From Bacteroidales bacterium (GTDB taxonomy: Bacteria > Bacteroidota > Bacteroidia > Bacteroidales > JAGOPY01), in the NCBI GenBank assembly GCA_023229505.1, contig JALNZD010000001.1:130823-194822 (forward strand): DNA of 64,000 nt, written 5' to 3'. Both the position numbers and the translations under genes were made by a program. How positions within the stretch are numbered: the stretch's first letter is position 1; each line of letters starts with the position of its first letter. A model generated the notes under the pieces. The model saw only the letters and a list, made by a program, of their open reading frames with translations. It did not search any database and had not been told where the DNA came from. Of this stretch, positions 27,304-31,346 are shown piece after piece.

Positions 27304-28350
27304 ATGTCTGCTGACCTCCCGGAAATGAATGAAGACCAGGAGGTGCTGGAAGAAAGCCAGGACCTTTACGAACATTATCGCTTTGTAGCCGATAAGGGAC
27401 AGGGGCTGCTGCGTATCGACAAATTCCTGATGCTCCGCATTGAAAATGCCACACGAAATAAGATCCAGCAAGCGGCCCATGCCGGCAACATACTGGTGAA
27501 CGGCCTTCCGGTCAAACCCAACTACCGGGTAAAACCGTTGGATGTGATCTCCATCGTTCTTTCACATCCTCCCAGGGAAATTGAGATCATCGCTGAAAAT
27601 ATCCCGGTGGAGATATTATACGAAGACAGCGACTTGCTGGTGGTTAACAAACAGGCAGGAATGGTCGTGCATCCGGCTTACGGGAATTATACGGGCACAC
27701 TGGTCAATGCCCTGGCTTTCCATCTCCAGGAGATCTCGCCGGACAAAGAACCTGGCCGGACCCCTTTCCTGGTTCACCGGATTGATAAGGACACCTCGGG
27801 GGTGATGATTGCAGCCAAGAACGAACTTGCCCAGGCCAGGCTGGCGGCACAGTTCTTTCATCACACGATCGACCGGCATTATCTTGCACTGGTCTGGGGT
27901 GATTTTGAAGATGATAAGGGCACCATTACCGGTCATATCGGGCGAAGCATCCGCGACCGCAAGGTTTTTGCCGTATTTTCAGATGGTAGCCAGGGCAGGC
28001 ATGCCGTGACACATTACACTGTTATCGAAAGATTCGGATATGTGACTTTGCTGGACTGCAAGCTCGAAACCGGCCGTACACACCAGATCCGGGTACATTT
28101 CCAGCATATCCGGCATCCCCTTTTTGGCGATGAAACTTATGGGGGCAATGTGATCCTGAAAGGCACCACCTTCACAAAATATAAGCAATTCGTGAATAAC
28201 TGCTTTGCGATCCTCCCACGCCAGGCCCTGCATGCACGCTTACTAGCCTTTATCCACCCCACTACCAAACAATGGATCCAGTTTGAGTCCGAACCGCCCG
28301 AAGATATGGCTACGGTGATTGAGAGGTGGAGGCGGTACAGGAAAGAATAA
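27304..28350 (+). CDS. rluD: RluA-family 23S rRNA pseudouridine synthase (RluD-like, with S4 domain)
   Basis: S4-like N-terminus (LLRIDKFL...), catalytic HRIDKDTSGVM, and GRTHQIRVH. Confidence 0.9.
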   Translation: MSADLPEMNEDQEVLEESQDLYEHYRFVADKGQGLLRIDKFLMLRIENATRNKIQQAAHAGNILVNGLPVKPNYRVKPLDVISIVLSHPPREIEIIAENIPVEILYEDSDLLVVNKQAGMVVHPAYGNYTGTLVNALAFHLQEISPDKEPGRTPFLVHRIDKDTSGVMIAAKNELAQARLAAQFFHHTIDRHYLALVWGDFEDDKGTITGHIGRSIRDRKVFAVFSDGSQGRHAVTHYTVIERFGYVTLLDCKLETGRTHQIRVHFQHIRHPLFGDETYGGNVILKGTTFTKYKQFVNNCFAILPRQALHARLLAFIHPTTKQWIQFESEPPEDMATVIERWRRYRKE

Positions 28351-28408
28351 TTCCAAATTCCAAATTCCAAATTCCAAATTGCTGACTGCTGACTGTTGAC
28401 TGCTGACT
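28351..28408. repeat. Two adjacent 4x heptamer arrays that fill the whole convergent spacer
   Basis: TTCCAAA x4 (28351-28378), then TT, then GCTGACT GCTGACT GTTGACT GCTGACT (28381-28408). Confidence 0.9.
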
Positions 28409-29190
28409 TAATTTCCTGCCCTCTTTGCTTCATTCCAGAAAGCATCCATTTCCTCCAGCGACATCTGGTGAAGGGCCTTGCCCGTGTTCCTGGCACCTTT
28501 CTCAACATATTGAAACCTCTTGATGAATTTTCTGTTAGTCCGTTCAAGGGCATCTTCAGGATTGATATCGATAAAACGGGCATAATTGACCAGAGCAAAT
28601 AACAGGTCGCCAAATTCCATCTCAAGCTTTTGCTTGTCAAAATCTTCTTCAGCACATTCGACTTCTCTTCTGAACTCGTGCATTTCCTCAACTACCTTAT
28701 CCCATACCTGCGAGATTTTATCCCAGTCGAAACCGACACCGCCGGCCTTTTCCTGGATGCGGTAAGCTTTAACCAGTGCAGGAAGTGAATGAGGAACACC
28801 CCCCAACACTGACTCACGGCCTTCTGTCATTTTGATTTTCTCCCAGTTGTCCCTGACCTCGCCTGCATTTTTCACCTGCACATTGCCGTATATATGAGGG
28901 TGCCGCCTGATCAGTTTCTCACATATCGAGTCAAGTACATCCCTGATATCAAACGCATTCTTTTCACTTCCAATTTTCGCGTAAAAAACGATATGCAGCA
29001 TCAGGTCGCCAAGTTCATTTTTGATTCCATCCGGGTCCTTTTCCATGATTGAATCTGACAGCTCATAAGTTTCCTCCAATGTCAGGTGCCGGAGGCTGTC
29101 GAAAGTCTGCTCACGATCCCAGGGGCATTTCTCCCTTAATTCATCCATAATATTGAGAAGGTTTGCAAAAGATTGTATCCGGGGATCCAT
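28408..29190 (-). CDS. mazG: MazG nucleoside triphosphate pyrophosphohydrolase
   Basis: The likely start is MDPRIQSFANLLNIMDELREKCPWDREQTF (ATG at 29190). It carries the two MazG EExxE/ELGDL repeats. The 71-codon upstream extension of the track ORF overlaps the divergent promoter region. Confidence 0.88.
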   Translation of the reverse strand: MDPRIQSFANLLNIMDELREKCPWDREQTFDSLRHLTLEETYELSDSIMEKDPDGIKNELGDLMLHIVFYAKIGSEKNAFDIRDVLDSICEKLIRRHPHIYGNVQVKNAGEVRDNWEKIKMTEGRESVLGGVPHSLPALVKAYRIQEKAGGVGFDWDKISQVWDKVVEEMHEFRREVECAEEDFDKQKLEMEFGDLLFALVNYARFIDINPEDALERTNRKFIKRFQYVEKGARNTGKALHQMSLEEMDAFWNEAKRAGN

Positions 29191-31254: not shown

Positions 31255-31343
31255 GTTGACAGTTGACAGTTGACAGTTGGCAGGATTATTAAACTGCTTA
31301 CTTCTAACTGTCAACTGTCAACTGTCAACTGTCAACTGTCAAC
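31255..31343. repeat. Inverted heptamer arrays forming a long hairpin, likely a bidirectional terminator
   Basis: GTTGACA x3 plus GTTGGCA (31255-31282), a 26-nt spacer, then TGTCAAC x5 (31309-31343). It lies between convergent stops at 31247 and 31347. Confidence 0.8.
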
Positions 31344-31346
31344 TTC

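Follow-up and report, generated by a model that had tools for sequence, protein, structure and literature searches.

The window analysed here is a 64,000-nt stretch of a Bacteroidales genome, within which two genes converge on a spacer made of repeats. On the plus strand, positions 27,304–28,350 encode a 348-residue rluD-type pseudouridine synthase (PF00849, E = 6.8e-32, together with an S4 domain), a gene call that also appears in public assemblies; its C-terminus, IERWRRYRKE, aligns with those of congeners and its TAA stop codon occupies 28,348–28,350. On the minus strand, 28,408–29,190 encode the nucleotide pyrophosphohydrolase MazG (PF03819, E = 2.2e-35; 260 residues as called in public assemblies), which ends in the conserved sequence FWNEAKRAGN and whose TAA stop reads as its reverse complement, TTA, at 28,408–28,410. 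The 57 nt between the two stops (28,351–28,407) consist of four copies of TTCCAAA (28,351–28,378), the dinucleotide TT (28,379–28,380) and then GCTGACT, GCTGACT, GTTGACT and GCTGAC. The T that completes the last unit doubles as the first base of TTA, so that the second array extends over 28,381–28,408. Because TT keeps the phase of the first array, the two arrays span the whole spacer. TRF reports array 1 as 4.6 copies of AATTCCA at 28,349–28,380 (100% match, score 64), beginning within the rluD stop codon, and array 2 as 4.1 copies of TGCTGAC with 90% match. The initial annotation had described the spacer as two fourfold heptamer arrays and nothing else, and by both sequence and TRF this description is exact. 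Neither array contains a sense-strand stop, and both are open in all sense frames. The identical spacer recurs in two further contigs, one from JGI and one, of another run, from Logan (L152, L155).

It had also been noted that the arrays are not complementary to one another and that the spacer cannot form the hairpin of a bidirectional terminator; both points are borne out. The minimum free energy (MFE) of the 63-nt spacer is −1.5 kcal/mol on the plus strand and −7.0 kcal/mol on the minus strand, or −10.4 and −17.3 kcal/mol with 20-nt flanks. In silico, neither strand folds better than its shuffles; 200 dinucleotide shuffles give z-scores that are positive throughout, the spacer being less structured than shuffled sequence. 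Scanning with the intrinsic-terminator consensus revealed no terminator-like site in the spacer, and Rfam returned no match to it at E ≤ 1. No sigma-70 promoter consensus lies in the spacer and the counts for the region do not exceed those of shuffles, in a scan that leaves Bacteroidota-type promoters outside its reach. Compared with intrinsic (Rho-independent) bidirectional terminators, the spacer is alike in position, between two convergent stop codons, but lacks a G+C-rich stem as well as A and T tracts on its flanks. A hairpin is not universally expected in this genome, because about 23% of the convergent spacers without arrays also contain nothing better than −6 kcal/mol (compare the −7.0 kcal/mol above); in half of the array-free convergent spacers, the best hairpin reaches −10 kcal/mol or lower. 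Family-level relatives carry classical terminators, a hairpin followed by a T-run, 3′ of mazG (L010, L012, L022), and the hairpin appears to have been lost in the genus studied here.

To place the junction in context, we compared it across 40 relatives, among which only four congeners have rluD and mazG in convergent arrangement. In G009, the stop codons overlap, with a stop-to-stop distance of −4 nt. In G001, the distance is 14 nt and the rluD frame enters an (AAGTTCA)×3 array. The distance is likewise 14 nt in G003, where the rluD frame passes through GGGTTCC AGGTTCC … GCTGACT GCTGAC; this congener thus carries two-copy versions (2+2) of related units in the same places, namely GGTTCCA twice and GCTGACT twice. 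In G007, a spacer of 158 nt holds a single GGTTCC after the stop and then unrelated DNA with G/C palindromes. Within the species, contigs at least 98% identical fall into three alleles, two of them with 4+4 copies but different units and the third with a single copy. The single-copy contig (L153) encodes an identical RluD and shows 0 mismatches over 2,540 nt upstream, after which it reads TAA-GTTCCAA-TCA; its spacer is 7 nt, one unit. Array 2 is absent from this contig, as it is from G007, G009 and G001. The other 4+4 allele (L156) is 98.3% identical and aligns without gaps through rluD, both arrays and TTA. Its spacer also measures 57 nt, but 13 of the 57 bases differ, versus 17 of 1,800 upstream. 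Array 1 has become four copies of TTTCAAA/G, with the same C-to-T change in all four, and array 2 reads CTGACT GCCAACT GCCAACT GCCGAC, so that the allele has shifted to two of the commonest units in the genome, AAATTTC and AACTGCC.

A lack of conserved array structure in relatives, one of the two signs that the initial annotation would have taken as arguing for neutral slippage debris, is what the comparison shows: relatives have other units or copy numbers, or no arrays at all. To judge from these alignments, the junction behaves as a microsatellite that evolves in concert rather than as a conserved signal, and the lack of conservation favours the slippage-debris reading.

Several further features of the congeners were seen in the same comparison. 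In G001 and G003 (L004 and L030), in which the rluD frame enters the arrays, the repeat DNA encodes new C-terminal tails of RluD, ending in RRYSSSKF and QSSLGLRANG. In G003, rluD is only 66% identical and mazG 89%; mazG matches there in two pieces (G003:C15:620441-621153; query residues 2–89 and 87–239), which suggests a frameshift. The G007 spacer (L002) and the DNA 3′ of mazG in G013 (L011) contain G/C-rich palindromes of the type CCCCTCCCCCAATTGGGGGAGGGG instead of heptamers. Palindromes of the CCCCTCCCCCAATTGGGGGAGGGG type may represent a dispersed palindromic element family in the G007 and G013 relatives.

The spacing of the two stops also bears on the fate of the two transcripts. The initial annotation held that two convergent transcripts must end within the spacer, a requirement that finds no support in the congeners, three of which have stops that overlap by 4 nt or stand 14 nt apart. 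Distances of −4 nt in G009 and 14 nt in G001 and G003 leave no room for any terminator, and the contig with identical RluD and a 7-nt spacer likewise speaks against the need for one. On the strength of these alleles, no terminator is conserved at the rluD/mazG junction. With congener spacers of −4 to 14 nt and a sister allele of 7 nt, both mRNAs would therefore overlap the opposite gene. Untranslated antisense RNA is an established substrate of Rho-dependent termination, and a rut site is expected to be C-rich, G-poor, unstructured RNA of some 60–80 nt beyond the stop. A Rho RNA-binding domain is present in the genome; the gene (G000:C71:32606-32830, L151) lies within a 597-residue open frame that is much longer than E. 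coli Rho, a length in keeping with the long N-terminal insertions of Bacteroidota Rho. On the rluD side, the 3′ trailer has an excess of C over G of +12 over 80 nt (genome mean 0.7, s.d. 6.9), and array 1 contributes eight C and no G over 30 nt of transcript. The mazG trailer has a C−G of 0; over its first 60 nt C and G are balanced or G predominates, and it turns C-rich on entering antisense rluD. Read-through with factor-dependent (Rho) termination is proposed as the likely fate of the transcripts.

The arrays at this junction belong to a large population. All 109 contigs (4.12 Mb) of the genome, a metagenome-assembled genome (MAG) of an uncultured Bacteroidales bacterium, were surveyed. Period 7 dominates among exact arrays with three copies or more: there are 204 of them, next to 57 of period 8, 8 of period 6, 4 of period 5 and 0 of period 9. 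Simulated third-order Markov genomes of equal size contain 0–1 exact period-7 arrays of that length. With TRF, the non-redundant set comprises 589 period-7 and 236 period-8 arrays, and ten further period-7 arrays lie in the window itself. By crude ORF calls, coding sequence makes up 88% of the genome, yet 448 of the 589 period-7 arrays (76%) are mostly intergenic. Depending on orientation class, 14–23% of intergenic regions hold an array, with convergent regions highest at 23% and the others at 14–17%. Two or more arrays occur in 144 intergenic regions, 96 pairs are near-abutting (at most 15 nt apart), and in 19 convergent spacers of the genome arrays cover 70% or more of the length. One of them, C77:17498-17554, is likewise a convergent spacer of 57 nt from stop to stop, composed of (TTTCAGG)×3 and (AAACTAG)×4. 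The spacer between rluD and mazG is thus not a locus-specific device.

Unit usage is concentrated. The period-7 arrays draw on 119 of the 1,172 possible heptamer classes and the top ten classes hold 44% of arrays, at 12–79 times the background frequency of the same heptamers in intergenic DNA. The commonest units are AAATTTC (50 arrays) and AAAGTTC (47), and AACTGCC forms 20; the class of array 1, AAATTCC, makes up 16 arrays genome-wide and that of array 2, ACTGCTG, 8. The units also pair with themselves less than their base-permuted counterparts do, with a mean MFE of five copies of −3.5 versus −5.1 kcal/mol (Wilcoxon p = 9e-24). Counts of arrays with 2 to 8 exact copies are 785, 136, 52, 10, 3, 1 and 2, a monotonic decay that rules out a preferred copy number.

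Other explanations for the population as a whole were tried and set aside. Loss of mismatch repair is ruled out as the cause, with MutS and MutL intact in the genome and no excess at periods 4–6. In co-directional intergenic regions, the units run with and against transcription about equally (13:12 and 10:9 for the commonest two) and the arrays as a class show no bias of C over G, which together rule out a function of the class at the RNA level. The arrays do crowd against stop codons, with 184 of 620 array-to-stop distances (30%) at most 3 nt. Such stop-abutting arrays are predominantly G-rich in the sense of the ending gene (150 versus 41) and 101 of 205 close all three frames. A stop-codon safety device was nevertheless rejected, the G-over-C bias of stop-abutting arrays being best read as ascertainment, because a stop-containing unit itself sets the end of the ORF. 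That reading is moreover inapplicable to the rluD/mazG spacer, since both of its arrays are open in all sense frames. Finally, a two-array module with a grammar was dismissed, as classes pair as they would at random (62 of 96 pairs heterotypic, permutation p = 0.59).

A separate observation concerns array orientation. Of adjacent same-period pairs, 28 of 123 are mutually reverse-complementary, versus 5.4% expected for random pairs. These inverted pairs are most frequent between convergent genes, have a median gap of 22 nt and so form long sliding hairpins; in the window, (GTTGACA)×4 faces (TGTCAAC)×5 at 31,255–31,344. The rluD/mazG spacer is not among the inverted, hairpin-forming pairs.

Period-7 arrays were also counted in samples of 40–60 kb per genome across the order. 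Five congeners have 2–19 per sample and one family-level relative has 3. Among order-level genomes, six have 0–1 per 40-kb sample, G031 has 10 and G034 has 5; the latter two come from other families, yet are as array-rich as the genus studied here. The trait is therefore patchy across Bacteroidales. Around rluD itself, a 7- or 8-mer array starts within 25 nt of the stop at 7 of 80 distant Bacteroidales loci (L081, L084, L085, L089, L091, L117 and L137), with six different units; L085 also has two adjacent unrelated arrays.

The reading that we consider probable is that the spacer is a pair of hypervariable heptamer microsatellites that created the spacer and that has no terminator role specific to the locus. 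The two juxtaposed arrays belong to a lineage-wide population of some 800 period-7 and period-8 arrays, whose members would grow, shrink and swap units by replication slippage or unequal exchange wherever DNA is free of coding constraint. The ancestral spacer at this junction was probably near zero in length, and the arrays would make up the whole of the present one for that reason. The rluD and mazG transcripts would then most likely each continue antisense into the other gene, where Rho would end them or nucleases would trim them. We infer slippage as the generating process from the geometric decay of copy number and from the presence of one and the same base change throughout the copies of an array. 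Some observations sit less easily with this explanation. Unit usage is more concentrated than background heptamer frequency predicts, which goes against neutral local seeding. The avoidance of self-pairing, the marked preference for periods 7 and 8, with mismatch repair intact, the exact 57-nt, 4+4 structure of two diverged alleles and the recurrence of arrays close against the rluD stop, with six different units, at 7 of 80 distant loci are further counter-points.

The main competing proposals assign the arrays a function. They could be a hairpin-free terminator or insulator that loads Rho or binds a roadblock protein with a 7-nt footprint, and the low structure of the spacer relative to its shuffles, the C-rich, G-free array 1 in a trailer of C−G = +12, the weak self-pairing of the units as a class, the somewhat higher incidence of arrays in convergent spacers (23% versus 14–17%) and the equal length of two alleles are all consistent with such a role. 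However, the trailer on the mazG side has no C excess, the class displays neither C-over-G nor orientation bias and its stop-abutting members are G-rich. The contig with identical RluD also manages without arrays, congener spacers shrink to between −4 and 14 nt, and the use of more than 119 different units argues against a single sequence-specific binder; we therefore regard this proposal as unlikely. Poor self-pairing could also suit a post-transcriptional platform in the 3′ UTR for S1-, Csp- or CsrA-type proteins that bind single strands, the arrays lying in transcribed 3′ flanks and often within 3 nt of a stop (184 of 620 distances). The literature summarised in PMC4679880 has CspB binding with one protein to each heptamer. 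Such a platform would be expected to prefer a strand of the transcript, which the arrays do not; TAACTGA itself forms no arrays in this genome, the arrays follow stops rather than immediately precede starts as in Beggiatoaceae, and presence or absence is polymorphic at this locus within one population. We judge the platform highly improbable.

Alternatively, the arrays might be scars or docking sites of a recombination or mobile-element machinery with a 7–8-nt register, and not products of slippage. In the contig with swapped units, homology to the present genome ends exactly after array 2 and TTA, where an integrative mobile element begins (L156:1965-14865 of JGI contig Ga0268280_1000064). 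It encodes two ORF6N proteins, two tyrosine recombinases, a 940-residue DnaG-like primase and a Peptidase_M91 protein, and mazG is not on the available part. The concentration of usage on few words and the excess of inverted same-period pairs (28 of 123 versus 5.4% expected) can also be reconciled with such a machinery. Yet this is one junction, on a contig that ends inside the element, and it could conceivably be a metagenome misjoin at a repeat; 3′ ends of genes are in any case common integration targets. Conservative tyrosine recombination duplicates no sequence, insertion seldom interrupts an array (in only 6 cases do direct pairs of one unit lie in a single intergenic region), and the geometric decay of copy number fits stepwise slippage. 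This origin strikes us as doubtful, more so than a terminator. That the arrays are an artefact of assembly has next to no probability: the genome is indeed a MAG and one Logan contig ends inside array 1, but the JGI contig and the Logan contig from another run share the identical spacer, arrays of about 30 nt are shorter than a read, and related arrays recur in independent assemblies. A broader variant, in which a lineage-specific process with a 7–8-nt register writes the arrays and favours a few poorly self-pairing words, is conceivable, though the odds are against it; the arrays would then act as sites where integrative elements recombine or dock, as at the L156 junction, or as hairpin-free, factor-dependent boundaries between convergent genes.

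Returning to the microsatellite pair as the preferred explanation, a spacer made entirely of repeats would need no new mechanism of termination, because the rluD/mazG pair has no conserved terminator. The locus instead offers a natural series in one population, with one copy, 4+4 copies and 4+4 copies with swapped units, extended by 2+2 copies in a sister species and by a mobile element that abuts an array. Why some bacterial lineages amplify 7-nt units is a question that dates from 1990; the over-use of certain units (12–79-fold) and the avoidance of self-pairing can both be measured, and either could help to discriminate slippage models from models in which the arrays are actively written or selected.

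Tandem heptamers have been described in several other bacteria. The STRR sequences of heterocystous cyanobacteria, on which Mazel and co-workers are said to have reported in 1990, are reportedly dispersed tandem heptamers, mostly intergenic and of function not known. They resemble the present arrays in being dispersed, mostly intergenic tandem heptamers, but come from a different phylum and have the units CCCCAGT, TTGGTCA and CAACAGT, compared with TTCCAAA and GCTGACT in the rluD/mazG spacer. Of the 589 period-7 arrays, 0 consist of STRR1 (CCCCAGT), 7 fall into the STRR2 class and 2 into the STRR3 class. In the literature searched, nothing was found on small mobile repeats of Nostoc linked to heptamers.

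GGGAATC in Xanthomonas and GGGGAYT in Nostoc are 89–93% intergenic and lie on average 28 nt behind the upstream ORF; 16% of them have convergent ORFs on either side, and closely related species differ in the length and sequence of these repeats (Rehm et al. 2015, PMC4692102). The arrays described here are similar, with 76% intergenic, 30% within 3 nt of a stop and comparable turnover. Whereas Xanthomonas and Nostoc each use one dominant G-rich, quadruplex-capable unit, the units here are A/T-rich and diverse, and a search of the genome found no arrays of GGGAATC or GGGGATT. In Beggiatoaceae, Cyanobacteria and five Bacteroidetes, TAACTGA and accompanying heptamers form direct repeats that, in Beggiatoa, lie just upstream of starts in one orientation and have been proposed as protein-binding post-transcriptional sites (MacGregor 2015, PMC4679880). 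The present arrays differ in lacking orientation bias and in often abutting stops, the studied spacer being enclosed by two of them, and TAACTGA-class arrays were not found in the genome, which places it outside the TAACTGA system. A closer match is provided by Gramella and Aequorivita, in which several different heptamers occupy an intergenic region and close relatives have shorter, repeat-free ones (PMC4679880), just as relatives of the present genome have shorter spacers.

Among known classes, the nearest counterpart is that of the long simple sequence repeats (LSSRs), in which heptanucleotides are the most abundant class and for which polymerase slippage was proposed (Mrazek, Guo and Shah 2007, as summarised in PMC4679880 and PMC4692102). 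As those summaries describe them, heptanucleotide LSSRs are, like the arrays here, tandem 7-nt units over-represented relative to other periods and mostly non-coding; the survey genomes that the summaries name do not include uncultured Bacteroidales. Relative to that survey, the present genome stands out in having period 8 as a strong second class (236 arrays) and a broad repertoire of 119 unit classes. Because TAACTGA, GGGAATC, GGGGATT and STRR1 form no arrays in this genome, the arrays fall outside the named unit families. Judged by their sequence characteristics, they belong instead to the heptanucleotide LSSR class, with which they share head-to-tail tandem 7-nt copies beyond chance length, an excess of period 7, a non-coding bias, and copy numbers and units that vary between close relatives.
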